Part shown: positions 4,184 to 38,133 of the stretch, piece by piece | Layout of the letters: each line of letters opens with the position of its first letter | Numbering within the stretch: position 1 is the stretch's first letter | DNA from: a virus | Lineage: Duplodnaviria; Heunggongvirae; Uroviricota; Caudoviricetes | Direction: 5' to 3' (one strand) | Length of the DNA: 56,801 nucleotides | IMG/VR virus record: IMGVR_UViG_2529293216_000012 | Notes under the pieces: generated by a model | What the model saw: the letters and a program-made list of their open reading frames with translations, nothing else | The model's database searches: none | What the model was told of the DNA's origin: nothing | Translations under genes and position numbers: made by a program

Positions 4184-4408
4184 CACCTGTAACCAGGTGA
4201 ATCATTTGATACCGACAAGGGTTTTAGTGAAAGGAGGTGAAATCACCTGTAAGATGCTGAAATAAAACAGGTGATGTATACTTCGGACGGAAAACTCTTT
4301 TTGATACCGACTGCTCAACAAATAGTCAAAAGATCAAAAAACGGCGACACATTTGATACTGCTAATTTACCCTTAAAATCTTCTTCAAAACATCTTCAAA
4401 ACATCTTC
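4184..4408. repeat. Mu-like left-end region: repeated transposase-binding-like motifs and a tandem repeat
   Basis: TTTGATACCGAC at 4205-4216 and 4300-4311, TTTGATACTGC at 4352-4362 (spacing about 95 and 50 bp, like Mu L1-L3); palindrome CACCTGTAACCAGGTG at 4184-4199; AAAACATCTTC-type unit x3 at 4375-4408. Confidence 0.45.
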
Positions 4409-4554
4409 AAACTGCCAAAATGCTCACATAATCGATCTAACTATAATCAGTATGATAATCATCATGAATTACTATTCAATAGCGTGATTATCTTGGGATG
4501 AGTCATATGATCTCTATATGTATTTACAGCACCACCTCATGATAGCGATGGCGC

Positions 4555-5166
4555 TTAACCAACAACATTTTTCTTTACTGTCACTGCCCCTGATTCCTGG
4601 GTGGCGTTATTGCTCGAGTTGTACTTCTCAATAACGCGCAAAATCTCTTTGTCTGTTTCTTCACTTCCCGCCATTCCTATCTTTATTGCATTTTTTAGTA
4701 CGGGACGTAATGGCAAGGCATCAATGATGCTTTCTACCGCATCCTGGCTGATTGTAGATGTATTCATTGCTGCCAGCCTGACAAGGTTATTAGTACCTTC
4801 TCGCCTGATGAATGTAAGGATTAATTGCTTCTCTTGGGGGCTTAGAGAGCTAAGCGCCTGATCAATACCCGAACCTGAATCGCAATTGTTTTCGATTTTT
4901 CCGCATTCATCTTCGTTCTTGCCTGTGGCCAACCATTCGAGTGAACAATTACAGGCTTTAGCTATTAAGGCCAGTTTATCCAAAGGAGGGAAGTTTTTCC
5001 CCTTCCTGTAATTTCTTACTGTGGCTTCAGATAGTCCACAAAGGGTCGCCAGTTCGACGTTTGTCATGTTTCCCATAGCCATAGCTAAGCGTTCTGAAAA
5101 TCGGTTTATTCCTTCCATATCAATAAACCGTTCCGCACTGGATACGGTTTTTTCTGCCTTATCCAT
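4555..5166 (-). CDS. c: Mu c-type repressor (HTH, XRE-like N-terminus)
   Basis: 203 aa; N-terminal HTH (NVELATLCGLSEATVRNYRKG); leftward, divergent from ner-A-B as in phage Mu. Confidence 0.8.
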   Translation of the reverse strand: MDKAEKTVSSAERFIDMEGINRFSERLAMAMGNMTNVELATLCGLSEATVRNYRKGKNFPPLDKLALIAKACNCSLEWLATGKNEDECGKIENNCDSGSGIDQALSSLSPQEKQLILTFIRREGTNNLVRLAAMNTSTISQDAVESIIDALPLRPVLKNAIKIGMAGSEETDKEILRVIEKYNSSNNATQESGAVTVKKNVVG

Positions 5167-5322
5167 ATAACCCCCTATAAAACAAAGAAATTATCGACAT
5201 CGCATTTAATTTCGATATGCTCGCAAAAAACCGTTGATATCGAATTATTTTGCGATTATGATTTACCTAAATCGATAACCGGTTTTGATTATCGGTTCAG
5301 GTAAACATGAGAGGATCACACA
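5167..5322. promoter_or_regulatory. divergent c / ner-A-B promoter-operator region (Mu Pc/Pe-O1-O3 equivalent)
   Basis: 156 bp intergenic with at least five copies of an ATCGA(T/C)A-type motif and the palindrome AACCGGTT; position about 1 kb from the left end matches the Mu operator/enhancer region. Confidence 0.5.
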
Positions 5323-5589
5323 ATGAGGGTATCCAGACAAGCATCGAATAATTTGTTTGTTCGAGAGGGGTGTGACTGGTCTGCTAAAGCGGTATATGCA
5401 GCCCTTGAAAACAAAGGCACAGACCTCCCTGAACTGGAAAGGGAGTTAGGATTAAAAAGCGGATCAATGCGCAATGTGTTTTACCGCCAGTGCCGTAAAT
5501 ACGAAGCCGCCATCGCCGAAAAAATAGGGGTTGAACCTGCTGTAATCTGGCCCAGCAGATACCAGGTGGACGCCAGAGAAGTGGCTTGA
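5323..5589 (+). CDS. ner: Ner-like DNA-binding regulator
   Basis: 88 aa; C-terminal EPAVIWPSRYQ matches the Mu Ner/Nlp signature; immediately upstream of the transposase. Confidence 0.88.
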   Translation: MRVSRQASNNLFVREGCDWSAKAVYAALENKGTDLPELERELGLKSGSMRNVFYRQCRKYEAAIAEKIGVEPAVIWPSRYQVDAREVA

Positions 5590-5599
5590 TGGGGGATGT

Positions 5600-7690
5600 A
5601 TGTGGGTAACAGCAAAAGAATGTGTTGGTCTTCCTGATTTACCAATGATGGAACATAACATTCGCCATCGACTCACAAAAGCAGCTGCGGGAAATGCAGC
5701 CATGTTACGCAAACGTAAGGGGACAAAAGCAATCGAATTTAATATCGATTGTTTGCCTTCTGGCGCGCAACAAGTATTGCGTGAACGTTATGCCCTTCAA
5801 CTGATGACGCAAAAAGCTGATGAATCACCGGCTCCGGTGGTGACAAAGGCCAGACGCTCGCCTGCCGTGGTTGATGCGGTGGAGGCATATCGCGGATCAC
5901 CACAACTGATGGTTGAACGCCTTAATGCCCTGACTGAAAACCAGCGCCAGGTGGCTGATGCACGAATTGCGATCGTCAGCGAAGTGATGAAAGTCGCGCA
6001 ACAACCCGGTTTCAGCTGTGCGAAAGCTATCCGGTTTATCGTTGACAACCTGGCACGTTCGCAACTGGACGAGCGCATTGTGGCAATGGTTGAGACGGCG
6101 AACGCCAAAAAGGGAAACAGCCGTGCGTTGAGTGAAATAACGCTGAAACGCTGGATTGCGGCCTTTAACAAGGCGCAGAACGCCGCTGAACGCCTGCTTT
6201 TACTGGCACCGGGTAAGCGCCAGGAAATAAAAGCCGAAGATATTAACTGGCTGCCCGAATTTCTGGCGCAGTATCGCCAGTCAAACGGCCGACCAATGAC
6301 CGAGGCTTACGAGGATTTTGTCGCTGAATGGCAGCACCGGCACGCTGATGAGCCTTATATGCTCGATATCATGCCGTCTTATGACACCATTCGCCGCGCA
6401 ATGAAGAAACTGCCGGAAGTGGTGAAACAAAAAGGCCGGGTGACCGGCAGTGAATACCGCCAGCTTGAGGGATTCACGCGCCGCGACTGGTCCAGAATGC
6501 CGGTGAATTATGTCTGGATTGGTGACGGTCACGGCATGAAGCTGAAATGCGCACACCCGGTTCACGGTCGGCCATTTGCACCGGAAGTGACCTTTGTTAT
6601 CGACGGTGGCACGCGCTTTGTGGTGGGCTGGAGCCTTGACCTGGCTGAAAATGTTTTCGCCGTAGCCGGTGCCATACAGCACGGCATTCGCCATCACGGC
6701 AAACCGTTTCTGTATTACTCGGATAACGGCTCCGGGGAAACCGCCGACATCCTGGATAAGGAGGTTGTGGGGATACTGCCGCGACTGGGGATTAATCACC
6801 CGACCGGGATTGCCGGTAATCCGCAGGGACGAGGCATTATCGAACGGCTTAACCGCACATTACCGATGCGCATAGCCCGTAAATACCGCACCTATTTCGG
6901 GAAAGGTGCAGATCGCGAGACGTTACGCAAAACCAACCGCGATTTACGCTCGGCATTTACTGCCCTGCAACAGGGCAAACGGCTGAACGCCCGGCAGCAG
7001 TCAGCGATGCGTGATTTACCGTCCTGGTCTGAACTGATTGATGCCATTCGTGACGGTGTTGAGTGGTACAACAACCGGCCGCACGATGAATTACCGGTGA
7101 AGCCGAACGGCAAGCATTACAGCCCGGCGGAGTTCAGAAAAAAACGCCTGGCGGAAGAGGACACGGAAATTGAATGGCTGTCCGATGTTGAGCTGCGGGA
7201 TATGTTCCGGCCGATGGTGGAACGCCCTGTAAGACGCTGTGAAATACGCTGGCTGAATAATATTTACTACGCGCCCGAGCTGCGTGACGAGCATGGTCGT
7301 AAGGTGCTTATCAGCTATGACATTCATGATGCCGAACGAATTACCGTACGTCGCCTGGATGGCAGCGTGATTTGCGAGGCGGTATGGGACGGTAATAAAC
7401 GCGAAGCCTTCCCGGTTAGCGCGGAATACTACAAACAGCAGCAACGCCTTAAAGGCATGCGTAAACGCGCAGAGGAAAAAATCCGTGATGCCGAGGATGA
7501 GGTTGTCAACGTGCTGGAGCACAAGCCGCAGGAGCCCTGGCTGGAAAACATATACCGCCCTGTGGGTAATACGGTGACCGTTCAGCAACCGGTCGCTGAC
7601 GATGAACCTGATGAAGAATACGAGCGTAATTTCCAGCGGGGATTGCAGTTGCTGGAAGCGAAATTAAAAGAAAATGACCCGCTGGCCTGA
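5600..7690 (+). CDS. A: Mu-type DDE transposase A
   Basis: 696 aa; N-terminus MWVTAKECVGLPDLP resembles MuA (MELWVSPKECANLPGLP); size and position match. Confidence 0.93.
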   Translation: MWVTAKECVGLPDLPMMEHNIRHRLTKAAAGNAAMLRKRKGTKAIEFNIDCLPSGAQQVLRERYALQLMTQKADESPAPVVTKARRSPAVVDAVEAYRGSPQLMVERLNALTENQRQVADARIAIVSEVMKVAQQPGFSCAKAIRFIVDNLARSQLDERIVAMVETANAKKGNSRALSEITLKRWIAAFNKAQNAAERLLLLAPGKRQEIKAEDINWLPEFLAQYRQSNGRPMTEAYEDFVAEWQHRHADEPYMLDIMPSYDTIRRAMKKLPEVVKQKGRVTGSEYRQLEGFTRRDWSRMPVNYVWIGDGHGMKLKCAHPVHGRPFAPEVTFVIDGGTRFVVGWSLDLAENVFAVAGAIQHGIRHHGKPFLYYSDNGSGETADILDKEVVGILPRLGINHPTGIAGNPQGRGIIERLNRTLPMRIARKYRTYFGKGADRETLRKTNRDLRSAFTALQQGKRLNARQQSAMRDLPSWSELIDAIRDGVEWYNNRPHDELPVKPNGKHYSPAEFRKKRLAEEDTEIEWLSDVELRDMFRPMVERPVRRCEIRWLNNIYYAPELRDEHGRKVLISYDIHDAERITVRRLDGSVICEAVWDGNKREAFPVSAEYYKQQQRLKGMRKRAEEKIRDAEDEVVNVLEHKPQEPWLENIYRPVGNTVTVQQPVADDEPDEEYERNFQRGLQLLEAKLKENDPLA

Positions 7691-7761
7691 AATAAAAAAA
7701 TAACCCGAGCGGCGACTCAGGTTATTTGATTAAACAAGGTATCAAATGAGAGGTTAATAAT

Positions 7762-8694
7762 ATGACTGATATTAACGATGTAATCAAGACCATTGATGAA
7801 CTTATTGATGGCGGCGTACTGACGCAGTATGCCATCGCCAGAGAGGCGGGAATTTCCGACGGCACATTATCGGCTTTCCGTAAGGGAAAATATAAAGGCG
7901 ATAACGCTGCTGTGGCTGCTTCCCTGCGTTCCTGGTATGAGAACTGGAATAAACAAAGCGCACTGCCGGAACCGCCGCAGTTTGTGGAAACGCAGACAGT
8001 CCAGGAGCTGCGCGCACTGTTTCAGGCGGTTCGTCTGATGGGCTGTATTAACGTTATTGTGGGCGTACCGGGTGTGGGTAAAACGGCCACTGCCCGTAAT
8101 TACTGCCAGGAGCAACCAAACACCTGGATGATCACCCTGTCACCCGCGCACTCCAGCGTCACGGAGTGTCTGCTGGAGCTGGCCGATGCGCTGGGGATTG
8201 ATTACACCCGCGCGAACAAAGGGGCATTATCCCGCGCCATCCGCCGTCGCCTGATGGGAACGCGTGGACTGGTGATTGTGGATGAGGCGGATCATCTTGG
8301 TATTGACGGTCTGGAGCAACTCCGGGCAATTCAGGACGCCACGGGGATCGGGATGGTGCTTATTGGTAACCCGCGCGGATTGTTTAAAGGTGGACGCCGC
8401 GCCTTTGATGATTTATCGCGCCTGTTCAGCCGTCTTGCCCGTACAAAACAACTTCGCAAGGCCAAAAAGGCGGATGTGCTGGCCATTGCCAGGGCGTGGG
8501 GGATCAGTGGTGAGGCCGAGCTGGCCGTCATGCAGGCTATCGCTGAAAAGCCGGGAGCGTTACGCGTTCTGACACATACGCTTAACCAGGCGTGGCTCAC
8601 CGCCAGCGGTGAAGGCGCGGCGCTGACAGAAAAACATATTAATGCGGCCTTTAAAGAGGTTTATACCAACCCTGAATTACTCTCACAGGTGTGA
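7762..8694 (+). CDS. B: Mu B-type AAA+ transposition ATPase / target DNA activator
   Basis: 310 aa; N-terminal HTH, Walker A GVPGVGKT, Walker B LVIVDEADHL; follows A. Confidence 0.9.
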   Translation: MTDINDVIKTIDELIDGGVLTQYAIAREAGISDGTLSAFRKGKYKGDNAAVAASLRSWYENWNKQSALPEPPQFVETQTVQELRALFQAVRLMGCINVIVGVPGVGKTATARNYCQEQPNTWMITLSPAHSSVTECLLELADALGIDYTRANKGALSRAIRRRLMGTRGLVIVDEADHLGIDGLEQLRAIQDATGIGMVLIGNPRGLFKGGRRAFDDLSRLFSRLARTKQLRKAKKADVLAIARAWGISGEAELAVMQAIAEKPGALRVLTHTLNQAWLTASGEGAALTEKHINAAFKEVYTNPELLSQV

Positions 8695-8918
8695 TTATGG
8701 CGGTATTTAATATTCCTGATATTTACGGACGCTTTTACCTGGTTAATTTCGATAACGTGAAGGTGATTTCACTGGCCGAAAATAAAGAATGTGGCGATTT
8801 TCTTTTTGAATTTAATGACCGCACACGAATGGTGATATCTGCCGGACTTGATCGCGAAGGTGCGACAGACGTTTACAGCGGAATATGCCGTTCTGTTGGT
8901 GCGAAACAAGTCAGCTAA
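8691..8918 (+). CDS. small protein at the position of Mu kil (host-killing)
   Basis: 75 aa ORF overlapping the B stop; positional analogy to Mu kil only. Confidence 0.45.
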   Translation: MIMAVFNIPDIYGRFYLVNFDNVKVISLAENKECGDFLFEFNDRTRMVISAGLDREGATDVYSGICRSVGAKQVS

Positions 8919-9185: not shown

Positions 9186-9186
9186 G

Positions 9187-9737: not shown

Positions 9738-9741
9738 TTCC

Positions 9742-10035: not shown

Positions 10036-10046
10036 GGAAAAACAAA

Positions 10047-11217: not shown

Positions 11218-11220
11218 TTC

Positions 11221-11754
11221 ATGATTGATGCAAAAGTGCTTGAAGGGGTTAAAAGCTGGCTGCGTTTTTCTGGCCGTCTGACCAGTCGTTCTCTGGCAGA
11301 AAAAATGAATATGCCGCTATCCTCCATGGTTTATTTTCTGCGTGATGCGGTCGATGCCGGGGTGCTGACGGACCGTAACGGTTTTTATGATATTCCGCGT
11401 CCCCGCCCGGTGCAGGCGGTTCGTCGCAAATGCAGCCAGGAAGGTGCGGCTGATGATGTTCAGTGGTGCAGCTTCAGAAAATCCCTGCCGTGGATTGAGG
11501 GGCATGATATTCCGTCGATGGCGTGGGAATTTGCTCAGGGAGTACTGACCTGCGAAACCGTTTATGTGGTGGCTGAAGTTGATGAGCAGGCCATGAAAGA
11601 AGGCGTGCCCCAGTTTGTGATGGCGTATATCGACATTCGCCTGGGCGTCATTATCTGCGGCTTAAGCGGCTGGAACATCACCGGGCGCGTTCTGCGTTAC
11701 CTGATTATTGACCGGACAGCGGCATCGGCAGGGATATCTGCGGAGGTGGCGTAA
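11221..11754 (+). CDS. hypothetical protein with N-terminal winged-helix-like segment
   Basis: 177 aa; starts 4 nt after the upstream stop; N-terminus LTSRSLAEKMNMPLSSMVYFLRDAVDAGVL looks like an HTH. Confidence 0.55.
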   Translation: MIDAKVLEGVKSWLRFSGRLTSRSLAEKMNMPLSSMVYFLRDAVDAGVLTDRNGFYDIPRPRPVQAVRRKCSQEGAADDVQWCSFRKSLPWIEGHDIPSMAWEFAQGVLTCETVYVVAEVDEQAMKEGVPQFVMAYIDIRLGVIICGLSGWNITGRVLRYLIIDRTAASAGISAEVA

Positions 11755-12269
11755 TGTTCTTTAAAACATCAAACCCTTCCGCGCTGGCTGCGTGGCAAAA
11801 ATACCAGCAGGACTGCCAGAAAGTTAAGGATGAGGCAAAACGCCTTGAGGCCGTGCTGAATGTTGCGTGCCGGTCGGTATTTGTATCCGGTATCAGTGGA
11901 TTTTGCTTTAAGGGACTGCGTTTTACGGAGGACAAATATCCTTTTCATCGCGACTTATGGCGAAAACCGACTGCGTCGAATGGCTGGAGCTGCACACCGC
12001 GCACATCACGTATCCCTAAAACCCTGCGTGTTGCCTCTGATGAACTGAACAGTCTGTGGCGTGAATATTCGCCCGTCACGTATGCCAGAACCGATGCGCT
12101 GTTGTTCTGGCTGGGTATTGATTTCTCGGCAATCCTGTTTGGCCCTGTGAAGTGGTTCTGCGTTGACGATGTGATTTACCTTCAGTGCGGCGTAAAACCC
12201 GCAAAACAGAAAATGACCGAAATACTGTCTGATGAGTTTTATGCTGCTGAAAAGCGAGTCAGGGGGTGA
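11754..12269 (+). CDS. hypothetical protein (accessory region)
   Basis: 171 aa; start overlaps the upstream stop; no family recognised. Confidence 0.55.
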   Translation: MFFKTSNPSALAAWQKYQQDCQKVKDEAKRLEAVLNVACRSVFVSGISGFCFKGLRFTEDKYPFHRDLWRKPTASNGWSCTPRTSRIPKTLRVASDELNSLWREYSPVTYARTDALLFWLGIDFSAILFGPVKWFCVDDVIYLQCGVKPAKQKMTEILSDEFYAAEKRVRG

Positions 12270-12272
12270 TGC

Positions 12273-12824
12273 ATGATGAAATTACAACCCATGGGACTAA
12301 AAGGTCGCGCCCCCGCTCATGTCCGTCCGTGGACACCTGAAGAAGATGCGCTGCTGATTGCGCTTTATTCATCCACCCCGGTTAAGGATATTGCTGCCAG
12401 AATAAAAAGAACTGTCTGGGCTGTATATAACCGGACTGGTGTATTGCGCAGTTCATACCCGGAGTTACTGAAATATAAACACCCAAGATTTACACCTGAT
12501 GAAGATAAGTTTATTCGAAAAAATGCCAGAACAATGACCTGCCAGCAAATGGGAGAATATCTCGGACGTAATAAAGATTCTGTCAGATGTCGGGCAGGAA
12601 TGATTGGTGCTGGATTAACAAAGTGCGGAGAGTTACGCCCCGGCACGCGCATATCTGATGATGATGTACGTCTTATACGTGCGCTGCGTGATTCCGATTA
12701 CCCACGCCGTCTGTCATTCCGGGAAATTGGCGAAAAGTTTGGAATATCTGAACATTCTGCTCACGCAGTTTATTACCGTCGCCGGACTGCCGAGGACGCT
12801 GTATTACGGGAGTTAACGCCATGA
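12273..12824 (+). CDS. hypothetical DNA-binding protein with two Myb/SANT-like repeats and a C-terminal HTH
   Basis: 183 aa; RPWTPEEDALLIALY and RFTPDEDKFIRKN repeats, then LSFREIGEKFGISEHSAHAVYYRR. Confidence 0.55.
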   Translation: MMKLQPMGLKGRAPAHVRPWTPEEDALLIALYSSTPVKDIAARIKRTVWAVYNRTGVLRSSYPELLKYKHPRFTPDEDKFIRKNARTMTCQQMGEYLGRNKDSVRCRAGMIGAGLTKCGELRPGTRISDDDVRLIRALRDSDYPRRLSFREIGEKFGISEHSAHAVYYRRRTAEDAVLRELTP

Positions 12825-14359: not shown

Positions 14360-14363
14360 CTCC

Positions 14364-16905: not shown

Positions 16906-16907
16906 CG

Positions 16908-28015: not shown

Positions 28016-28023
28016 GGTAAGGC

Positions 28024-28389
28024 ATGAGCGGAAAACAGTATCAGGGCACGGCCACTATCCGTGTGAACGGTCAGGAATACGAGACGCTTGAGGGGGCTAC
28101 ATTTTCTCCGTCAGGTTTTGAACGTGAAGTGGTGAAAGGCGCGAAAGTCTATGGTTACCGCCAGAAACCACGTGAAGCGACGCTGGACTGCAAATTTCCG
28201 GCAGGCGGAGAAGGCTCACCAGCCGCTGATGAAATCAACAACTGGACTGCGGTCACTATCGAGTTTGTGGCGGATACCGGCGAAGTCCACATGATGACGA
28301 AGGCCTGGAGCAGTGAACCGGCCTCGCTTGACGGTGGCGGGGAGATCTCCGTGAAGTTCGCCAGCGCCACCAGTACCCGTGTTCAGTGA
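28024..28389 (+). CDS. tail tube protein (Mu M type)
   Basis: 121 aa directly after the sheath. Confidence 0.85.
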   Translation: MSGKQYQGTATIRVNGQEYETLEGATFSPSGFEREVVKGAKVYGYRQKPREATLDCKFPAGGEGSPAADEINNWTAVTIEFVADTGEVHMMTKAWSSEPASLDGGGEISVKFASATSTRVQ

Positions 28390-28880
28390 TCAGGAAAAAT
28401 AAAATGACCACACGTAAGAAAAAAACGGCAGTTTCCGAGGCAGCCGTGATGGAGGCAATCCGGGAAGCACTTGAGGGGGCTGATCCACGCACTGCCGGGC
28501 TGACAGAGCAACTGGCAAAGGGATATGTGGATCTGCTTGATGGTCTGCCGTTTGGTGAGACCCGTGAATATCGTGTCACGTTCCGGGAACTGACAGCGAA
28601 AGACAGTATTGACGCAGAAGCAGAAGCCGAGCGCGTGGTGGAGACAAACAATGGCCCGATGCTGATAGCGTCTCCGTCGTTACGCGGTGTTGCACTGCTG
28701 CGCCGTCAGATTGCCGCAGTGGGAGACATTGAAGGTCCGTTGTCACCCCGTCAGATTGGACAGTTAAGCGAGCGCGATCTCTCCCGCCTGATGGCAGCGG
28801 TCAGCCTGCTGGATACCGCGCTTGCCGGAAAGCTGGCAGCTGACCGGGGGCGATCAGGCGCAGTGTCGGGATCAGATTGA
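28386..28880 (+). CDS. tail assembly chaperone (Mu gp41 position)
   Basis: 164 aa between tube and tape measure; a short ORF in another frame (28822..29004) overlaps its 3' end. Confidence 0.6.
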   Translation: MIRKNKMTTRKKKTAVSEAAVMEAIREALEGADPRTAGLTEQLAKGYVDLLDGLPFGETREYRVTFRELTAKDSIDAEAEAERVVETNNGPMLIASPSLRGVALLRRQIAAVGDIEGPLSPRQIGQLSERDLSRLMAAVSLLDTALAGKLAADRGRSGAVSGSD

Positions 28881-29006
28881 AGAAGCGGCAATTATCCTGG
28901 GGATGGTGACAAAAAGCGGTCCGGAATGGGCGCTTAACCTCCCCCTGTCGCAACTTTACCGGCACTGCCGACAGACAGAAAAAATCATCAGAACGAAGCA
29001 GTAAGT

Positions 29007-31082
29007 ATGGCCCGAAATCTCAGAGCATCTCTGATAGTTGATTTGCTCGGCAATATCTCAGCCAAATCCCGCCAGTGGTCACAGGAGCTGGGGGCATTCT
29101 CACGCTCCGGCCAGGCGGGGCTGGGTGGCCTGGGAAATGCTGCCCGCCGTGCCGGGCAGGAAACAGATGTACTCGGAAGCAGGATGCAGCGCACGCTGGC
29201 CGGGGTGCGGGGCAGTATCCGCCATGTCACTTCTGATTTTGACCGTCTTCAGGGCAGTATTACCGGCACCATCGGGCGGATCAGCAATCTTTACGGAATG
29301 CTGGCCGGTGGTGCTGCTGTATATGGCTTTAACCGGGGATTTATTCGCCCGGCAGCGGAGATGGAAACCTATATGATTCGCCTGAACTCCCTTTACAAAG
29401 GGGATCGGGCGAAAACGGATGATGTCCGCAGGTGGGCAATACAGAATGCGAAGGAAACCACCTGGGGGCTGGCTGGCGTCATGCAGGAATATACGTCCAG
29501 TCTGGGCTTTGGTATGAGTGACAGGGAGGCCCGAAATTTTGTCACCATGCTTCAGGATCAGGGGGCCGTGGGCGGCTGGTCACTGTCCGATGCACAGGGG
29601 GCATCCCTGCAACTGAAACAGATGTATGCAAGAGGCAGTATTCAGGCGGCGGATGCAAATATTCTTGCCACCTACGGCATTAATGCCTACCGCGTGCTGG
29701 CTGATCGTCTGGGTGTGGACCAGAAAGTGGTCAGAAAACTTGGTGAAAAAGGGCTGCTTGGGCCGGACAGTATTCGCCTGTTATTTCAGACGCTGGCGGA
29801 ACAGGCCAGGGGAGCACAAAAGGACGCAATGAATTCCTGGAGTGGCCTGACGGCCATGATGGGTGACGTCTGGGACCAGTTTGCCCGGGATGTGATGGAC
29901 AGTGGGCCATTTGAAAAACTGAAGGGTAATCTCAGGGGATTTCTTTCATGGGTTGACAGTGCCAAATCTGATGGCAGTTACCATTCCCTGGCGGAAAGCA
30001 CGGCATCAGCCATGAACCAGGGCTTTGAGTATGCCCGTGATGCAGTGACAGGGTTTTATCAGGCGATCAGAAAGGTACGCGACACGCTTCAGGCTCTGCG
30101 GGATGCGGGCTATGGTGATGCGCTGGATCGCATTGGTCAGGGGGCACAGACTGCCGCGAAATACCTGCTGTACATGTATCTCGCCACCCGTGCCCTGAAA
30201 ATGGCGCGGGCTGTCGGAACGGGGATTATACGTCCGGGTGCTGCATTGCTGGGATACGGATTATCAGCGGCGGCCTTCCTGACTTCACCTTTCCGGCGCT
30301 CTCCTCCGGCCGGAACACCACCAGGCACATCTCAGGGACGAGGGCAACGTTTTATAAACTTTCTTACCGGGGTAAATCCGGCAGCCGTTCAGCCAGTACT
30401 TGTAACAAACTGGCCCACAGGAGGACTGTCCGGCACCGGCGCGACCGATACATCCTCAGGCGGACGTCAGGGGCGGGGCCGCAGGAAACGCGGACCGGGG
30501 CGCGGAAGACCGGTCACGCCTCCCCTGCCACCGTCCCCAGTGCCACCGTCTCCCTCTTCTGGTGGGGCAGGGTTCTGGGGGCGCATGATGGGGCGCGCCG
30601 GTGGGTTACTTTCGTCTGTCGGTAGCCGCATGGGGCTGGGGCGTTTCTCCGGCTTTTTCCGCAGTGCCGGTGGACTGGCCGGCCGGCTGGGTGGAGGTGC
30701 CCTGTGGGCTGGCGCGATGGCAGCCCCGGTTCTGCTGGATGGCAGCGCCAGTGCCACAGACAAGGGAGAAGCGGTCGGCTCTCTTGCAGGCAGTATTGCC
30801 GGTGGTGCGCTGGGGGCGGCAGCCGGACCTGTGGGGATTGCCATTGGTTCTACGGTGGGCAGCTATCTCGGTAACTATCTGGGGGGATGGCTGACTGAAG
30901 CCTGGCAGAAATTACGGGGCAGTGATGATGAAAGCAGTGGACAGGCGGTACAAAAAGCCTCTGCCCGTGTGGAGCTGGTTGCCCCGGAAGGGTGGCAGGC
31001 TCGCAGTATTGATATTGATGACACGTCCGGTCACGGACTGGATGTGAATGTCTGGAACGGAGGGAATTATGGCCTCTGGTGA
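29007..31082 (+). CDS. tail tape measure protein
   Basis: 691 aa; helical N-terminal two thirds, then a Pro-rich and Gly-rich low-complexity C-terminal third. Confidence 0.85.
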   Translation: MARNLRASLIVDLLGNISAKSRQWSQELGAFSRSGQAGLGGLGNAARRAGQETDVLGSRMQRTLAGVRGSIRHVTSDFDRLQGSITGTIGRISNLYGMLAGGAAVYGFNRGFIRPAAEMETYMIRLNSLYKGDRAKTDDVRRWAIQNAKETTWGLAGVMQEYTSSLGFGMSDREARNFVTMLQDQGAVGGWSLSDAQGASLQLKQMYARGSIQAADANILATYGINAYRVLADRLGVDQKVVRKLGEKGLLGPDSIRLLFQTLAEQARGAQKDAMNSWSGLTAMMGDVWDQFARDVMDSGPFEKLKGNLRGFLSWVDSAKSDGSYHSLAESTASAMNQGFEYARDAVTGFYQAIRKVRDTLQALRDAGYGDALDRIGQGAQTAAKYLLYMYLATRALKMARAVGTGIIRPGAALLGYGLSAAAFLTSPFRRSPPAGTPPGTSQGRGQRFINFLTGVNPAAVQPVLVTNWPTGGLSGTGATDTSSGGRQGRGRRKRGPGRGRPVTPPLPPSPVPPSPSSGGAGFWGRMMGRAGGLLSSVGSRMGLGRFSGFFRSAGGLAGRLGGGALWAGAMAAPVLLDGSASATDKGEAVGSLAGSIAGGALGAAAGPVGIAIGSTVGSYLGNYLGGWLTEAWQKLRGSDDESSGQAVQKASARVELVAPEGWQARSIDIDDTSGHGLDVNVWNGGNYGLW

Positions 31083-32418
31083 CGGTCGTGGTGCGTTCCG
31101 TGGTGTGCCGTTCCTCGTCTGGCGTGAGCAGCGCGAACGTGGCGGGCGAAACATTGTCCGTCGGGAATATCCGTTACGGGAAACCGGTGGTGCAGACGAT
31201 CTGGGACCTAAACTGGCTGAATTTACGTTCAGTGTACTTGTGATGGGGGATGATGTTCAGACACAGCGAAATCGTCTGCGTGATGCCCTTCGTGCACCCG
31301 GTGCCGGGGAGCTGCTTCACCCGGATTACGGCACGTTAAATGTGCTGATAAACAGCTTTGAAAGTCGTTATAACGCTGCTGAACAGGGCGTGGTTGAGTT
31401 CACCATTAATGTCACGCCGGTAAGTGATGATACCGCACCTGCTGTCACACAGGACACGGCCGCCATTCTGGAGCAGAAGAGTACCACCGCGCTCGGGAAG
31501 GTTTTTGAAACCCTGGAAGCGGGCTGGACGGTGATTTCTGACGGAATGCACGATGTCCAGGCAATGACCGAAACCATCAGCGATAAGGTGTCCGCCCTGG
31601 AAAATGCCGTTTCCGGCATGGGGATTGTACAGGATATCAGTGCCTTTACTGCCACGTTCACGGCGCTGAAAGGGAATGCCACGGCATTACTGACAGCACC
31701 TTCCCGCATGGCCTCATCTTTTGCGGGGCTTTTCAGTGCCCTGATCACCCTGCCATCGCTGCCGTCACTGTCTTCAGGAGGCCTGAATACCCGGCCCGGT
31801 GGCAGTATCGGCCGGACGACATCCGCCTTCTCTCAGGGAATGCCGCAACTGTACAGGACATTATCTTCCCTGCGTTACGTGCTGGATGAGCAGGATAATC
31901 CGCAGACTCTCATCGGTCTGACACCGGCAGCACAAAAGAATATTCGTCTGATACGGGCGGTAATGCAGAGTGCTGCCGTGGTGGCCCAGGCACAGACCGT
32001 GGGAAAACTGCTGGATCAGGTTCTCAGTCAGGAAACCCTGCCGGACAGTGACGCAGCCCACCGTACCTGGCCTGTCTGGCTGGAAAGTTCAGTTGATCTT
32101 CAGCGCATTAACCGTGACTTAAGCGAAGCGCTCGAACGGCAGGTGATGACACTGTCCGGGCAGGGGTATACCGCCACGGCGCTGACGCTTCGTGATGCCA
32201 GACTGGCACTGACAGAGGATCTGAATACACGGGGAGTTCAGCTACCCGGTGCAACAGTAGTGACTGTACGTACCACCGAGCCTGCACTGGTGACCCTGTA
32301 CCGTGCCACCGGGAACAGTACCGGCTGGCAACGTTTTGTGCGCCGTAACGGTATTGTTGATCCGCTGTTCATTCCCGGAGGCCATTCAGTGGAGGTGATT
32401 AGTGAGCAGCAGGGTTGA
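31069..32418 (+). CDS. Mu N-like DNA circularisation protein
   Basis: Internal ATG with GGAGGG RBS chosen (MASGDGRGAFRGVPF, matching the homolog in the second tail module); track ORF starts at 31048. Confidence 0.8.
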   Translation: MASGDGRGAFRGVPFLVWREQRERGGRNIVRREYPLRETGGADDLGPKLAEFTFSVLVMGDDVQTQRNRLRDALRAPGAGELLHPDYGTLNVLINSFESRYNAAEQGVVEFTINVTPVSDDTAPAVTQDTAAILEQKSTTALGKVFETLEAGWTVISDGMHDVQAMTETISDKVSALENAVSGMGIVQDISAFTATFTALKGNATALLTAPSRMASSFAGLFSALITLPSLPSLSSGGLNTRPGGSIGRTTSAFSQGMPQLYRTLSSLRYVLDEQDNPQTLIGLTPAAQKNIRLIRAVMQSAAVVAQAQTVGKLLDQVLSQETLPDSDAAHRTWPVWLESSVDLQRINRDLSEALERQVMTLSGQGYTATALTLRDARLALTEDLNTRGVQLPGATVVTVRTTEPALVTLYRATGNSTGWQRFVRRNGIVDPLFIPGGHSVEVISEQQG

Positions 32419-33526
32419 ACTGTATCTGGGCGGTGAGATTTTTTCCGGCTGGCTGACGGTGAGTGTTCGTCGCTCTCTTGAACATCTGGCGGGCTCCTTT
32501 GAACTGGGGGTAATGATGCCCGGTGTACGCCTTCCGTCATCCGTCCGTGCCGGTCAGTCTCTGGAATTGCGCATTGACGGTCAGCCTGTGATCACTGGCT
32601 GGCTGGATCAGGTCCGGCAGCGCATCAGCGCCACGCGTTTTCAGATCACGCTCAGCGGACGGGATAAAACCGGTGACCTGGTGGACTGTTCAGCCATTCA
32701 TCCGGGCAGCCAGTGGAGGAACCGCACGCTGGAGCACATTGCTTCAGATTTGTGTGCTCCGTTCGGGGTCACGGTGCGCTGGCAGGTAAATGATGCAACG
32801 GCAGCCCGGCCCTTTTCCACCTTCACACTGGAAAACTCAGAAACCGTGGCAGATGCGCTGACACGGGCCGCGAGACACAGAGGCGTCCTGGTAACCAGTA
32901 ATGCCGCCGGTGAACTGGTTTTCACTCAGGCCGGCAGTCAGCGTGGCGACACGCTGACGCTGGGCGAAAATCTGCTGGATTTGGATCACAACGTGGATCA
33001 CCGTCTGCGCCACAGTGAATACCGTGTACGGGGGCACGGGCGTGGTGGTGGTCATGCCGGGGATGCACTGACAGCCGGAACGCTGGCCGCACCCGTTGGT
33101 ACGGTGACAGACAGTGCCATCCACCGTTACAGACCGAAAATTGTGCTGGCGGATCATGCTGTTGATGCAGACGGTGCACGCCAGAGGGCTGTCCGGGAAA
33201 TGCGCCGGGCGGTTGCCCGCTCTGTGCGCCTGACAGCCACCGTGCGGCACTGGTTTCGGGAGAACGGCCAGTTGTGGGATATCAACCTGCTGACGGCTGT
33301 CACGGCTCCCCGCACCGGAGTGGAAGAGCGTGATCTTCTTGTCTGTCAGGTGGAGTTTTCGCTGGATGCAAATCACGGCGAAACCACCCGTCTGATTCTG
33401 GCACCCCGTGACGGCTTTATTGTTCCGGCAGAGCCGGGAAACAGCGGAAGCGGAAATGCGGGTGACGTGGACGCCTTCGTGCGGGCACAGATGAAAAAAC
33501 AGGGGATTAAATTCAATGATGAATGA
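32402..33526 (+). CDS. Mu P-like baseplate hub protein
   Basis: 374 aa; conserved order N-P-gp45. Confidence 0.82.
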   Translation: MSSRVELYLGGEIFSGWLTVSVRRSLEHLAGSFELGVMMPGVRLPSSVRAGQSLELRIDGQPVITGWLDQVRQRISATRFQITLSGRDKTGDLVDCSAIHPGSQWRNRTLEHIASDLCAPFGVTVRWQVNDATAARPFSTFTLENSETVADALTRAARHRGVLVTSNAAGELVFTQAGSQRGDTLTLGENLLDLDHNVDHRLRHSEYRVRGHGRGGGHAGDALTAGTLAAPVGTVTDSAIHRYRPKIVLADHAVDADGARQRAVREMRRAVARSVRLTATVRHWFRENGQLWDINLLTAVTAPRTGVEERDLLVCQVEFSLDANHGETTRLILAPRDGFIVPAEPGNSGSGNAGDVDAFVRAQMKKQGIKFNDE

Positions 33527-34130
33527 CGAAGTCATCAGCCGCCTTCTGGCCCCCGTGATGCGGGGTGTTCGTCTGCTGTTCGGGCGTGGTGTACTGACCG
33601 GCACAACGGACACGCTGAAAATCCAGAATGTGCAAATCACCGGTATGGATGGTGAAACCTTTGATGACGTTGAACGCCCCCAGCAGTACGGGCAAATCAG
33701 CGTCCCCCTGCCTGGTGCGGAAGTTTTTCTGGCCTGTGCTGGCGGACAACGGGATCAGGCCGTGGTGCTTGTGGTGGAAGACCGCCGCAGTCGCCCGACC
33801 GGACTTACCGCCGGAGATACCGGCGTGTATCACCATGAGGGGCACCGTATACGTCTGACAAAGAACGGCCGGATCATTGTGACCTGTAAGACGCTGGAGA
33901 TTTACGCCGATGAAGGTGTTCAGGTGGATACACCGGAGGCTCACTTTACCGGTAATGTCACAGTGGATAAGAACCTGCATGTCAAAGGCAATGTGTCCAT
34001 TGACGGCACCGGAAGATCACAGGGGACGTTCACGATGTCCGAAGCGGTTATTGCCGGGATCACCTATTCAGGTCATGTGCATCACGATAACGGTGAAGGC
34101 AGCAAAACGGGAGGACCAGAGAATGGCTGA
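33516..34130 (+). CDS. Mu gp45-like baseplate assembly / spike protein
   Basis: 204 aa; overlapping start and stop. Confidence 0.8.
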   Translation: MMNDEVISRLLAPVMRGVRLLFGRGVLTGTTDTLKIQNVQITGMDGETFDDVERPQQYGQISVPLPGAEVFLACAGGQRDQAVVLVVEDRRSRPTGLTAGDTGVYHHEGHRIRLTKNGRIIVTCKTLEIYADEGVQVDTPEAHFTGNVTVDKNLHVKGNVSIDGTGRSQGTFTMSEAVIAGITYSGHVHHDNGEGSKTGGPENG

Positions 34131-34560
34131 TATTGCTGTCGTCTGGGATCAGGGTTGCGGTTCCCTGCAACTGAACGGCGCAGATCTTCTGACGGATAAC
34201 AGCCTGCTGACTGCGGTCATTATTTCACTGTTTACGGACAGGCGGGCGCTGGATTCCGATGAAATCCCTGACGGCACCCGTGACCGTCGGGGATGGTGGG
34301 GAGACAGTTTCCGGGAGCGCCCCGTTGGCTCCCGTCTCTGGCTGTTAAGCCGTGAAAAGACGCTGTCCTCCGTGGTCAGCCGTGCACAGGCCTATGCTGA
34401 TGAAGCGCTGGCGTGGCTGCATAAAAGCGGTGCTGCCACATCCGTGGTATGTCATGCCATGCGTGTGGGGCATGCTCGCCTTTCGCTTTCCGTGAAAATC
34501 ACCCTGCCGGACGGAAGCAGACATCCGATGATTTTTTATGCTGATATGAAGGGGGAATGA
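34123..34560 (+). CDS. Mu gp46-like baseplate protein
   Basis: Internal ATG (MADIAVVWDQ...) overlapping the gp45 stop (ATGGCTGA) chosen over the long track ORF 33910..34560; WWGD motif shared with the minus-strand homolog. Confidence 0.78.
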   Translation: MADIAVVWDQGCGSLQLNGADLLTDNSLLTAVIISLFTDRRALDSDEIPDGTRDRRGWWGDSFRERPVGSRLWLLSREKTLSSVVSRAQAYADEALAWLHKSGAATSVVCHAMRVGHARLSLSVKITLPDGSRHPMIFYADMKGE

Positions 34561-35642
34561 TGCCTTATCAGCCCTTACCACTGGCGCAACTGATCACACA
34601 GACACAACAGGATATCAGCCAGCGCCTGCCCGGTTCGCAGCCGGGCGTGAATGAAACCACCCTGAATGCCATTGCGTATGCACTGGCGGGTCTGTCAGCA
34701 CAGGAGCATGAACATCTGGCCTGGATCTCCCGGCAGATAATTCCGACAGAAGCTGATGAAGCCGAACTCCTGAAACACTGCGCATTCTGGGGTGTCATCC
34801 GTAAACCGGCTTCCCGCGCTGACGGACCGGTACAACTGATGCTGACCACGGATGCAGGGATCACGGAAGGCGTACTCCTTCAGCGAAGCGATGGGGTTGT
34901 GTACCGCATCACCGGCTCTGCGACCGGAAAAGCCGGAACACTGAATGTTAATGTGGAGGCGGAAAGTGCGGGGCGCGCTGGAAATACCCCGACCGGAACC
35001 CGCCTGTCCTTTATCACGCCACAGGCGGGCATCAACCAGACAGCCACGGTCACCGGCACGGGACTCACCGGTGGTGCGGATGTGGAAACGGTGCCGGAGT
35101 TGCTGTCCAGGCTGGTATTCCGGGTACAGAACCCGCCATCAGGGGGAACACAGTATGATTTTGAACGCTGGGCACGGGAAGTACCGGGCGTGACGCGGGC
35201 ATGGTGTAAGCCTGAATGGCCTGAGGCGGGTAGTGTTGGTGTGACTTTTGTTCAGGATAATAACCCTGACATTTTCCCCGGAGAAGGTGATGTGAAGCGG
35301 GTGGCGGATTATATCCGCAGTCATGATGATCCGGCGACGGGCCAGCCCGTTGGTCAGCCACTTGGGCCGACAATCAGCGTGTTTAAGCTGACCAATAAGC
35401 CGGTGGCGTTTGAGATCAGGATTGTACCCAAAACGCCGGAAAATCAGGCTGCCGTAAAACAGGCATTAACAGACCTGCTTTATAACGAATCGCGGCCGGG
35501 TGGACTTGTATTGCCTTCATCATTCTGGCGGGCTGTTGCAGGGGTGAAAGGACTGGAGGATTTTGAAGTTCGCAGCCCGCTGAAGTCCGTGATGGCCGGA
35601 GATACAGAGTTGCTGACCGTGGGGGAAATCACATGGCTGTAA
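34557..35642 (+). CDS. baseplate J-like protein (Mu gp47)
   Basis: 361 aa; overlapping start. Confidence 0.85.
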   Translation: MMPYQPLPLAQLITQTQQDISQRLPGSQPGVNETTLNAIAYALAGLSAQEHEHLAWISRQIIPTEADEAELLKHCAFWGVIRKPASRADGPVQLMLTTDAGITEGVLLQRSDGVVYRITGSATGKAGTLNVNVEAESAGRAGNTPTGTRLSFITPQAGINQTATVTGTGLTGGADVETVPELLSRLVFRVQNPPSGGTQYDFERWAREVPGVTRAWCKPEWPEAGSVGVTFVQDNNPDIFPGEGDVKRVADYIRSHDDPATGQPVGQPLGPTISVFKLTNKPVAFEIRIVPKTPENQAAVKQALTDLLYNESRPGGLVLPSSFWRAVAGVKGLEDFEVRSPLKSVMAGDTELLTVGEITWL

Positions 35643-36193
35643 CCCTGACCCCGCATCAGCGCGCCCTGTTGCAGTTGCTGCCTGACGGGCTGGCATGGGA
35701 TAAGCGGCCGTCATCCGTTCTTGCGGCTTTGTGCCTGGGCCTCAGTCATTCCACGGAGCGTGTTTCCTGGACCGGTAACCAGATGCTGGCAGAACGTTTT
35801 CCTGATTCATCCCGTCTGCTGCTGGAAGACTGGGAGCGTTATCTGGGGTTACCGGAATGTGATATGACCGGCGCAACCATTCAGGAGCGTCAGCGTTATG
35901 CCGGGAATAAATACCGGATGAAACCCTCTCTTAACCGTGAATTTTATATCCGGTTTGCGGCAGAGTTTGGTTATGAAATAGATATTCAGCCATCACCGGA
36001 TTCACAGTGGGTCAGTATTGTCACGATTAACAGTGAAACCGGCTACCGGAATATGAATGTGCTGGATGATATTCTCACGCCGCTGCGTATTTATGAAGGC
36101 GGTGCGCTGGAATGTATTCTGAACCGTTATAAGCCTGCATGGCAGACGTTTATTTACGTATATGCAAACAGTCACGAAGAGGAGAATATTTAA
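35633..36193 (+). CDS. Mu gp48-like tail protein (DUF2313)
   Basis: 186 aa; homolog of minus-strand 38907..39491. Confidence 0.78.
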   Translation: MAVTLTPHQRALLQLLPDGLAWDKRPSSVLAALCLGLSHSTERVSWTGNQMLAERFPDSSRLLLEDWERYLGLPECDMTGATIQERQRYAGNKYRMKPSLNREFYIRFAAEFGYEIDIQPSPDSQWVSIVTINSETGYRNMNVLDDILTPLRIYEGGALECILNRYKPAWQTFIYVYANSHEEENI

Positions 36194-37095
36194 TGTTCCA
36201 TGTTGATAATAATTCCGGCGTGGCGAATATGCCTGCGCTGGCACCGGCGCAGAGTAATACCACCACCTGGTTTACCGAAGGTGACGGACAAAAAGGTATC
36301 AGCTGGATTGGTCAGGACTGGCTGAATATTCTCCAGGCCGAACTGCTGAATATTCTGGCTGAAGCCAGTATTCAGCCGGATAAGGCGCAGTTAAACCAGC
36401 TTACGCTGTCCATTAAAGCCATTATCGCTGCGAATGCCTTTTCCCGGAAAAACAACCTGAAAGAAATTGCTGATGCCGGTGCGGAAGCCCAGCGTCTTGC
36501 CCGTGGTTATCTTGGTCTTGGGGCGCTTGCCACAAAAAACAGTCTTGGTCCCGGTGACGTTAATGCTCTGGCGAAGGATCAGAACCTTGCCGACCTGGAG
36601 AATGCGGGAACCGCCCGTAATAATCTGGATGTTTACAGCAAAAGCGAAGGTGATAACCGTTACCTGCGCAGGGAGCAGAACGGCGCAGACATTCCGGATA
36701 AAGGCGCTTTTATCGATAACGTTGGTTTGGGAGAAGCGGCAAAACGGGATGTGGGGACAGGGGAAAATCAGATACCGGACATGGCCTCTTTTGCCAGTGG
36801 TGATGGATGGATGAAATTACCCAACGGGAAAATCCTGCAATATGGTCGTGGTGCGGTTACGCCGACATTATCGACGCAAACAATGAGAATTACATTCAGC
36901 ATCCCTTTCTCCAAAAAAGCGGACTGCGCCATGCTTACTCATTCTGGTGATGGCGGTGCGCCTTTAGGCGCTGGGCGAGGGTTCGTGATGACTGCAGAAG
37001 GCCCAACGTTAACCGGCTTTAATTCTGCTTACAGAACGTCATCAACCAGCGACACGGTATCGATGAATTACAGTTGGTGGGCTGTTGGTGAGTAA
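36193..37095 (+). CDS. tail fibre protein (Mu S-like)
   Basis: Internal ATG overlapping the gp48 stop (TAATG); N-terminus MFHVDNNSGVANMPA. Confidence 0.75.
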   Translation: MFHVDNNSGVANMPALAPAQSNTTTWFTEGDGQKGISWIGQDWLNILQAELLNILAEASIQPDKAQLNQLTLSIKAIIAANAFSRKNNLKEIADAGAEAQRLARGYLGLGALATKNSLGPGDVNALAKDQNLADLENAGTARNNLDVYSKSEGDNRYLRREQNGADIPDKGAFIDNVGLGEAAKRDVGTGENQIPDMASFASGDGWMKLPNGKILQYGRGAVTPTLSTQTMRITFSIPFSKKADCAMLTHSGDGGAPLGAGRGFVMTAEGPTLTGFNSAYRTSSTSDTVSMNYSWWAVGE

Positions 37096-37106
37096 TTTTA
37101 TTCAGG

Positions 37107-37559
37107 GTGATTTATATGAATGAATATGTTTATAGCGCAAGGCATAATGCTTTTTTCCCTGTGGATATGATTGATAAATATAAATCAGAGGGATGGGATT
37201 TATCAGACGCTAAGGAAGTAAATCAAAATATTATCAGTGAGTTTATGGCTGAACCGCCACAAGGAAAAATCCGTATTGCCGGAGATGATGGGCTGCCTGC
37301 GTGGGCAGATATTCCTCCACCCACGCATGAAGAACTTATTGAAATTACTGAATCAGAAAGACAGCTACTAATTAACCAGGCCAACGAATACATGAACAGT
37401 AAACAATGGCCCGGTAAAGCCGCTATTGGTCGTCTGAAAGGTGAGGAACTGGCGCAATATAATTTGTGGCTGGATTATCTGGATGCACTGGAGCTGGTTG
37501 ATACCTCCAGTGCGCCAGATATTGAATGGCCTACGCCTCCGGCAGTTCAGGCCAGATGA
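37107..37559 (+). CDS. tail fibre assembly protein (Mu U-like)
   Basis: 150 aa; C-terminal motif LDYLDALELVDTSSAPDIEWPTPP typical of tail fibre assembly chaperones. Confidence 0.85.
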   Translation: MIYMNEYVYSARHNAFFPVDMIDKYKSEGWDLSDAKEVNQNIISEFMAEPPQGKIRIAGDDGLPAWADIPPPTHEELIEITESERQLLINQANEYMNSKQWPGKAAIGRLKGEELAQYNLWLDYLDALELVDTSSAPDIEWPTPPAVQAR

Positions 37560-38133
37560 CATCCGGCGCGGTGCTGGTATCTGTTGCCGTCACCGCGTCA
37601 ATGTAATCCAGCACAGCGTTAAGTCTGGTTGTTTCTGCCTGCGTCGGTTTACGTCCGGCCTGCAATTTCAGTTGAATCAGACTGATGGAAGCCATTGCTG
37701 CATCAATCAGTGACTGGCGCTGTGCTTCTGCCGCTTCTACTGCGGCACCGTGTTGTGCCTCAGTATCTGTCACCCATTTTTCACCATCCCATTTATCGAA
37801 TGGCGTTAACGGGGCGATAGTGGTTGTATTTTCAGGATAATCACCCGGAGCTGTGATTTCTTTGGCGTCTCCCGTTTCGGTGTTATAGACGATTTCACCG
37901 CGATGGTCTGGCACATATTCCCATGAGTTTAAATCCATCGAACGGCAGATAGCATAACCCGCCTTATGTATACCAGGTTCATCCAGACAGGAATATGCAG
38001 GGATACCGACACCAATGGCAAGATATTCATTTGAAGTAGAAATATATTCCCGAGTTTTACCATCATAGTTATAGACGGTAATATTCCCCGCCTTCGTGGC
38101 AATAAGCTCGCTATTTAATACGGCGTTATCCAT
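37531..38133 (-). CDS. tail fibre assembly protein of the second (minus-strand) tail module
   Basis: 200 aa; C-terminus LDYIDAVTATDTSTAPDVIWPELPEA; 3' end overlaps the plus-strand assembly gene by 29 bp. Confidence 0.85.
   Translation of the reverse strand: MDNAVLNSELIATKAGNITVYNYDGKTREYISTSNEYLAIGVGIPAYSCLDEPGIHKAGYAICRSMDLNSWEYVPDHRGEIVYNTETGDAKEITAPGDYPENTTTIAPLTPFDKWDGEKWVTDTEAQHGAAVEAAEAQRQSLIDAAMASISLIQLKLQAGRKPTQAETTRLNAVLDYIDAVTATDTSTAPDVIWPELPEA

Follow-up and report, generated by a model that had tools for sequence, protein, structure and literature searches.

The IMG/VR virus record IMGVR_UViG_2529293216_000012, a stretch of 56,801 nucleotides that we call the window, contains a Mu-like transposable prophage with a recognizable left end at position 4188 and no right end. 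The element belongs to the known Sp18 family of Escherichia coli O157 and lies within a second, unrelated prophage, which is integrated at the tRNA gene thrW and is named X here. We propose, with a probability of about 0.78, that the window is explained by an invertase-driven inversion in this nested pair, between the left tail-fiber crossover site of the Mu-like prophage (Mu-L) and the right site of X (X-R). The Mu-like prophage is most likely split rather than demonstrably truncated, its right end having been carried out of the window and not deleted. A preliminary description of this DNA had suggested a defective prophage or one whose right end was replaced by recombination; the recombination stands in our analysis, while we see no evidence for a loss or replacement of the right end.

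The Mu-like prophage was compared with L001, an intact prophage of 38.9 kb in O157:H7 strain RV06, which served as the reference for collinearity. By blastn, window positions 4184-25232 and 25222-36728 are collinear with L001 2591-35200, with identities of 98.6% and 99.9%, respectively. Past the collinear part, L001 continues with an invertible fiber segment, a serine recombinase gene (gin), a DUF6645 gene, com, mom, and the right end, ...CGCCGCGCTATA. This collinearity, together with Pfam matches for MuA, MuB, the repressor, and ner, agrees with the preliminary description of the element as a Mu-like prophage, and the alignment to relatives with defined ends that it had recommended gave collinearity with L001 over 4184-36728 and, in the relatives, right ends that carry the inverted end motif.

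The limit of this collinearity is precise. Homology to the Mu-like prophage stops and homology to X starts at 36722/36723, which is the 2-bp core of a 26-bp Gin/Pin-type site in the tail-fiber gene. The following features surround it.

36193-37095, + strand: hybrid tail-fiber gene, with the Mu constant part (to 36722) in frame with Sv of the X cassette; 300 amino acids, WP_000469161.1, C terminus matching Pfam Gp53-like_C
36710-36735, + strand: hybrid crossover site, TTATCGATAACG TT GGTTTGGGAGAA, core at 36722-36723
36724-38612, mixed strands: invertible cassette of X, 1889 bp, with Sv (to 37095, +), tfa (37116-37559, +), tfa' (37531-38133, -), and S'v (38133-38612, -)
38601-38626, - strand: native left crossover site of X, CTCTCGAAAACC TT GGTTTGGGAGAA, core at 38613-38614
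38133-38903, - strand: tail-fiber gene of X, 256 amino acids, identical to the coding sequence at 21416-22186 of L002, Pfam Collar; it enters the cassette from the opposite side

When the window, L001, and L002 (X in strain ECP19-2498) were compared three ways, the outer half of the hybrid site proved to come from the left (gixL-like) site of the Mu-like prophage, and the core and inner half from the pinE-proximal site of X. AACGT and the core delimit the crossover, and the breakpoint lies within 6 nt at the center of the site. Written as outer half, core, and inner half, the three sites read as follows.

Mu left site (L001): ATCGATAACG TC GGTTTACGGGAA
X pinE-proximal site: TTCTTAAACG TT GGTTTGGGAGAA
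Window site: ATCGATAACG TT GGTTTGGGAGAA

The two imperfectly palindromic 26-bp sites at 36710-36735 and 38601-38626 form an inverted pair that bounds the cassette (24 nt complementary at 92%), and both fiber open reading frames (ORFs) cross a site in frame, at the boundary between constant and variable parts. The cassette has 0 mismatches against X in ECP19-2498, and among O157 genomes it occurs in both orientations relative to its flanks. The opposing tail-fiber assembly genes noticed earlier are indeed a convergent pair (tfa on the + strand, tfa' on the - strand, both matching Pfam Caudo_TAP); the Mu-derived DNA, however, does not run to 37640 as had been supposed, since it ends at 36722/36723 inside the fiber gene.

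The X sites contain TTGGTTTGGGAGAAGG, and in the left site of X the inner sequence is the same as the repeat published for the e14 P segment. The repeats of that segment have been experimentally defined and given as TTGGTTTGGGAGAAGG and CCTTCTCCCAAACCAA (PMC12529663). The e14 P segment is inverted by PinE and also by PinQ and PinR, two enzymes that come from other prophages, and inversion of the Mu G segment by PinE was shown in earlier work cited in the same paper (PMC12529663). The Fis-dependent enhancer of such reactions can act from many kilobases away (PMC3798978).

On both sides, the Mu-like prophage is flanked by parts of X. X is a thrW-integrated prophage with a tyrosine integrase adjoining thrW and a full late operon matching reference copies; it has a P27-type terminase, an HK97-type head, and a Mu-type tail, and in intact copies the order is thrW, int, early genes, lysis, terminase, head, tail, fiber, cassette, and pinE. 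The window holds these parts.

1-1444, + strand: host flank with proA (1-1254) and tRNA-Thr(CGU) thrW (1369-1444, found by ARAGORN), the attachment site of X
1459-4187, - strand: left arm of X, with the tyrosine integrase (1459-2622; Pfam Phage_integrase), a helix-turn-helix protein, yfdT, a phage protein, and yfdR (3507-4070)
38907-56801, - strand: late operon of X, with baseplate, tape measure, tube, sheath, HK97-type head, portal (51908-53134), large terminase (53282-55015), P27-family small terminase, and HNH genes
56508-56801, + strand: iss, at the end of the late operon stretch

The left arm is 100% identical to positions 14001-18187 of L005 from strain ECP19-2498, and window positions 1-4187 are identical in many O157:H7 genomes, as is the proA-thrW region (100%). 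The insertion point of the Mu-like prophage can be read directly: it lies after base 4187, in the early region of X, where the uninterrupted prophage reads ...GAACACC followed by TGCGGTGG. To the right of the breakpoint, window positions 36718-56801 match positions 20001-40084 of L002 at 99.995%, with 1 mismatch in 20,084 bases, at 53150. The second tail module, taken in the preliminary description for an unrelated neighbor, thus belongs to X itself: it is the late operon of the thrW prophage that also supplies the integrase arm next to the left end of the Mu-like element. In each of the complete genomes compared, the window's matches to the integrase arm and to the late operon fall on opposite strands, whereas in the window the two lie on the same strand. 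The late half of X is therefore flipped relative to the integrase arm, which calls for an inversion and not a deletion and places the Mu right arm past the right edge of the window.

Two further observations concern X. The gene iss, a serum survival gene, is located between its lysis and packaging genes. In the intact locus, a 47-bp copy of the thrW 3' end lies beyond pinE, and the reference X stands in tandem with a P4-like element (L002 14837-16226) that shares this copy.

No part of the 5-kb right arm, from the invertase gene to the right end, was found in the window by blastn, blastn-short, or tblastn with a Gin query, and the latter search revealed no serine invertase gene in the window, although in relatives an invertase gene stands next to the cassette (pinE in intact X, gin in L004 and L017, two relatives described below). 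The TTTGATACYG motif of the left end has no copy on the - strand of the whole window, and the 19-mer TGAATCATTTGATACCGAC has no second or inverted copy in it with up to 3 mismatches. The search for an inverted left-end motif proposed earlier, run here over the window, bears out the remark that the right end is undetectable in it, and a hidden or degenerate right end within the window was rejected on the motif search, the 3-mismatch search, blastn-short, and tblastn. The expectation of a right end near 41 kb has to be corrected, as the intact copy of 38.9 kb would put it near 43.1 kb.

The same observations bear on a true truncation, in which a deletion or other loss removed the right arm (cassette, gin, mom, and right end) and the opposing module came from a separate, second X-like prophage. 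The absence of right-arm sequence from the window is what such a loss would leave, and neither the protein database nor pattern scans of IMG/VR and metagenomes yielded the reciprocal junction. Yet in the references the left flank and the right module form contiguous halves of a single prophage, and here the right half is flipped, which a deletion cannot do; the breakpoint at a site core and the mirror and swap products recovered from other isolates fit a reciprocal site-specific exchange. We consider truncation improbable; a secondary, later loss of the right arm is conceivable.

In the inversion model, the Sp18-family prophage, presumably complete at the time, entered the early region of X behind base 4187 and pointed the same way as the X late genes. 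Each phage has an invertible fiber cassette between two 26-bp Gin/Pin-type sites, and the nested pair would therefore hold four sites, arranged as Mu-L, Mu-R, X-L, and X-R and alternating in orientation. The inversions permitted by this layout would be the two normal cassette flips, an exchange of Mu-L with X-R that gives the window, an exchange of Mu-R with X-L that gives its mirror, and both exchanges together, which would swap the cassettes. A serine DNA invertase, presumably Gin of the Mu-like phage or PinE of X, would have recombined the mutually inverted sites Mu-L and X-R and flipped about 37 kb. The left product would be the window, with the Mu constant fiber part joined to the X cassette and then the X fiber gene and late operon reversed. 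The reciprocal product would lie past the window: the X lysis and early genes reversed (L005 29762 back to 18188, 11.57 kb), then the inverted Mu right end, expected at about window-equivalent 68.4 kb, and after it mom, com, and gin reversed, the Mu cassette, and pinE. The Mu right end joined to X would be expected at ...TGCGGTGGCAGCC, and the predicted X-Mu junction would read ...GGCTGCCACCGCA, a 4- to 5-bp duplicate, and TATAGCGCGGCGAT (Mu right end reversed).

If this is correct, the ends of the Mu-like prophage are now some 64 kb apart in direct orientation, and the element probably cannot transpose or replicate as a unit until it is re-inverted. In principle the split state is reversible, and re-inversion could restore the element. 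Both phages would keep complete fiber genes while sharing one cassette and would display complementary tips at any time.

The model predicts a reciprocal hybrid fiber protein, with the constant part of X and the variable part of the Mu-like phage. This protein was built in silico and then found in the protein database (P0241, WP_251641502.1) with 100% identity and 100% coverage. The protein listing places it on 11 contigs, and 13 contigs were read for their gene context. Four loci (L019, L021, L023, and L024) have the arrangement of the mirror single inversion, in which the X tail leads into the Mu cassette and this in turn into the reversed Mu fiber and tail genes. In L020, the X tail is followed by the Mu cassette and pinE. 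The same 97.8-kb contig (from GCA_011836255.2) also holds L004, a Mu-like phage in which gin, com, mom, and the right end come after the X cassette. This contig is a complete reciprocal cassette swap, that is, a double inversion, and its four hybrid sites are all exchanged exactly at the core.

The window arrangement recurs as well. WP_000469161.1 is encoded on four contigs, three of them with the window arrangement (L003 and two others) and the fourth being L004. L003 is a 31.5-kb contig of a Logan assembly from a different sample; it has the same joint and differs from the window at 14 positions, 13 of which are in Mu tail genes where the window has L001-type alleles. Because L003 shares the joint and yet differs by single-nucleotide polymorphisms (SNPs), the joint is not an artifact of one assembly, and the event probably arose more than once. 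An assembly chimera, in which two prophages were misjoined at a shared repeat, is very improbable. What speaks for it is that both hybrid joints are found only on contigs of at most 141 kb and on no complete chromosome (0 of 5,426 complete genomes). The parental sites, however, share only AACGT and GGTTT around the joint, too short for misjoins in an assembly graph; the same joint is present in at least 4 contigs from different samples, in NCBI and Logan assemblies and with SNP differences; and the predicted reciprocal hybrid is present on 13 contigs.

Some observations in these and other isolates stand beside the predicted recombinants. In L022 (SRR11909393, 10001-14160), the X tail and constant fiber part are joined to the Mu cassette, which is followed by gin and the DUF6645 gene; this third hybrid configuration implies an exchange of X-L with Mu-L, by way of an excised circle or of an oppositely oriented Mu copy elsewhere. 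The Mu right end in GCA_011836255.2 adjoins the start of the X portal gene (L004 17435/17436, about window 53124-53134), an insertion point unlike that of the window, which suggests that Mu-like phages transposed into prophage X independently. For the L004 contig, a simple insertion at the start of the X portal gene, with the contig breaking in the repeated lysis region, seems more likely than a left flank in common with the window. In strains Z1835 and Z1836, the left end adjoins a gene for a 'phage head completion protein', which may be another insertion into X. Strain War, in which the Mu left end adjoins a portal gene, was rejected as an X case since the prophage is a different, Qin-like one. 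The length of the gin-proximal half-site varies among copies (GGTTTTCAGGG, GGTTTCAGGG, and AGGTTTCAGGG; L001 36564, L017 about 4990, L004 12404-12430, and L022 about 11665), and a 1-nt change in a half-site could affect the inversion efficiency of the native Mu cassette.

Several points weigh against the proposed inversion. Neither hybrid joint occurs in any of the 5,426 complete RefSeq E. coli genomes; the events are rare. The right arm was not recovered, as the window stops short of its predicted position, the ORF predicted to span the joint between the Mu right end and X is absent from the protein database, and an exact-pattern scan of metagenomes for this junction gave 0 matches. The Mu sites in the reference relatives have the core TC and the X sites have TT, and all hybrid sites examined have TT; in Hin and Gin, a core mismatch disfavors ligation of recombinants. 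The mismatch fits the rarity of these events, but it is no proof of the mechanism. Finally, RecA exchange between identical 1.9-kb cassettes would give the same structure.

This last route supposes that a Mu variant already carrying the X cassette had inserted into X and that the two identical cassettes, in opposite flip states, recombined. Such a variant exists in L004, whose X cassette has a hybrid site on either side and gin after it; a stretch of 1.9 kb that is about 100% identical suits RecA well, and the left site of the window is identical to that of the variant. However, a variant of the L004 type itself needs two crossovers exactly at site cores, and X on the L004/L020 contig has the Mu cassette and no second copy of its own. 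Moreover, the short-read contigs (L003, 31.5 kb, and L004/L020, 97.8 kb) read through the cassette, which suggests a single copy, and the Mu background of the window differs from L004 at 13 SNPs. We judge the RecA route unlikely, though less so than a truncation. Mu-mediated inversion by replicative transposition was also considered and rejected, as the junction is within the fiber gene and not at a Mu end. With respect to the reciprocal side of the inversion that we prefer, an exact-pattern scan of IMG/VR for the hybrid sites gave 0 matches, short-read contigs appear to end at the iss/lysis region, and the Logan contig ends at window-equivalent 56769.

The left end of the element was defined by megablast against 5,426 complete E. 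coli genomes. Homology to many genomes with unrelated flanks begins at window 4184-4188, and the neighbors of the family's left ends vary (siiEA, betT, other prophage genes, and others). The sequence T(G/A)TAACCAGG is the start of all 13 independent insertions, directly adjoining the unrelated flank. Because these insertions all start at the equivalent of 4188, we place the terminus at the TG at 4188; of the two candidates put forward earlier, 4188 and 4198, the latter is thereby ruled out.

4188-4380, + strand: Mu-like left end, with the terminus TGTAACCAGG at 4188 and three transposase-site-like repeats TTTGATACYG at 4205, 4300, and 4352

A motif search of the window confirmed the three + strand copies of TTTGATACYG that had been likened to L1-L3 (4205-4214, 4300-4309, and 4352-4361). 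The shuffle expectation for the motif is 0.16, and 4 matches were reached in 0 of 100 shuffles. The right ends of three intact relatives carry the motif inverted three times, ...AGTATCAAA...CGGTATCAAA...CGGTATCAAAAAAATCGCCGCGCTATA. Counted from the terminus, the copies have offsets of 18/113/165 in the left end and, in the relatives, of 18/40/75 in the right end, with the first copy at 18 nt in both, which resembles the L1-L3 and R1-R3 layout of Mu. Because of the inverted right-end copies and the Mu-like offsets, the motif is very likely a transposase-binding repeat; the alternative that these motifs are not the transposase-binding end, raised in the preliminary description, is accordingly very unlikely.

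A fourth exact + strand copy, TTTGATACCG, at 24364-24373 within the major head protein gene, is probably due to chance. Two complete insertions (L001 2595 and 41488; L017 10007 with L018, strain FDAARGOS_293) have terminus flanks that overlap by 4 bp only, CACC and ATCA, versus the 5 bp typical of Mu. The right terminus of the relatives ends in TA-3' and not in CA-3', and some left ends of the family begin with TATAACC rather than TGTAACC. A 36-nt inverted repeat with 75% complementarity connects 4237-4272, in the left-end region, with 8737-8772, just past the B gene, and CACCTGTAA is present at 4185 and again at 4244; both may be chance.

Many different flanks, and hence many unrelated insertion sites, were seen for the family. 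The Sp18 family is reported to occupy strain-specific sites in O157 and to be able to transpose (PMC7430833). Many database 'proteins' (P0140-P0240) are host ORFs fused to a common tail of about 36 residues that is translated from the Mu right end (YSAAIFLIPICISFDTAEKRRYATYLILNRRFSFEF). Such fusions could be used to catalogue insertion sites of the Sp18 family across E. coli and Shigella.

The body of the Mu-like prophage is laid out as follows.

4555-8694, mixed strands: early control and transposition genes (Pfam; proteins identical to those of L001)
4555-5166, - strand: c-type repressor (Pfam Phage_CI_repr)
5323-5589, + strand: ner-like gene (Pfam HTH_35)
5600/5648-7690, + strand: transposase A (Pfam Mu-transpos_C, E value 1.5e-17, with HTH_Tnp_Mu_1)
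7762-8694, + strand: MuB ATPase (Pfam Phage-MuB_C, E value 2.5e-25)
8697-36193, + strand: semi-essential, middle (mor, 14429-14854), lysis, head, and tail genes, with all ORFs open and collinear with the intact Sp18-type prophage

The repressor and the ner-type regulator are divergent and adjoin the left end. Mu-type head and contractile-tail modules are recognized from the collinear L001, whose annotation includes Mu gpT, a DUF935 protein, Mu F, sheath, tube, and baseplate; the counterpart gene of the DUF935 protein in the related copy L006 matches Pfam Portal_Mu. At window 25222-25232, within the gene at 24944-25297 for an HI1506-related protein, the repeat (GCCGAA)n, encoding (Glu-Ala)n, has 2 copies versus 13 in L001, an in-frame difference, and a Logan short-read contig also breaks near this repeat. 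A mosaic patch at 11221-12824 lies in the semi-essential region, where the neighboring genes are identical to those of L001. Compared with strain RV06 (L001), the protein of 12273-12824 differs at 53 of 183 residues and that of 11221-11754 at 14 of 177, and the allele of the former is widespread, with more than 2,000 database blocks.

Variable regions of tail fibers are mosaic across unrelated phages, as in Mu, P1, P2, e14, and p15B, and the physical route by which they are exchanged has mostly been deduced by comparing sequences. Here, for a transposable phage and a thrW prophage, natural isolates hold the two single-inversion intermediates as well as the finished reciprocal swap, with every crossover at the 2-bp core. 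The kind of event is known, as are the prophage family and the enzyme class; the configuration between prophages is new. A more tentative idea, which we think rather less likely than not to hold, is that the nesting makes an accidental four-site 'shufflon', in which two inversions would recurrently and reversibly share or swap cassettes and would toggle the Mu-like element between a transposition-competent and a locked state. If that idea holds, the nested pair would offer unrelated phages a natural, enzyme-driven way to exchange fiber cassettes that does without homologous recombination. The exchange mechanism is directly testable, and an altered host range is predicted for both phages. More generally, a prophage that seems to lack an end may have been split by inversion, and prophage callers working on short-read assemblies will mis-score it as defective.

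The closest known elements are Sp18 of O157:H7 Sakai and its relatives, such as Phi804-3. Window 4188-36722 is 98.6-99.9% identical to and collinear with a prophage of this kind, with the same repressor, ner, A, B, and end repeats. Unlike them, the copy in the window is nested in a prophage, has a hybrid fiber gene, and is without a contiguous native cassette, gin, DUF6645 gene, com, mom, and right end. The G segment/Gin system of Mu is similar in having a 26-bp site at the constant/variable boundary of the fiber gene S, convergent variable and chaperone genes, and an adjacent serine invertase, which here is present in the intact relatives. Gin of Mu, however, flips only the 3-kb G segment between its own sites, whereas here a Mu-type site would be paired with a site of another phage about 37 kb away.

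In Min of plasmid p15B and the R64 shufflon, more than two compatible sites allow alternative inversions and a reassortment of fiber or pilus tips. The four-site model would behave alike, with the difference that those systems are built into a single element and that here four sites would have been united by accident, through transposition of a phage into a prophage. Inversions with endpoints in prophages of O157 are usually large and arise by homologous recombination between similar prophages. In contrast, the endpoints here are 26-bp invertase sites in unrelated phages, with the crossover at the core. O157 inversions with prophage endpoints have been reported and associated with inverted-repeat pairs (PMC7430833).

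The P segment/PinE system of e14 is related through the sequence shared with the X sites, and PGAP names the X neighbors tfaE, ymfQ, and pinE. The foreign enzymes PinQ and PinR provide documented cases of invertase action across prophages (PMC12529663), as proposed here. The published foreign enzymes, however, flip a native segment between its own two sites, while in the exchange proposed here the sites belong to different prophages and the products would be chimeric fiber genes and a large inversion.

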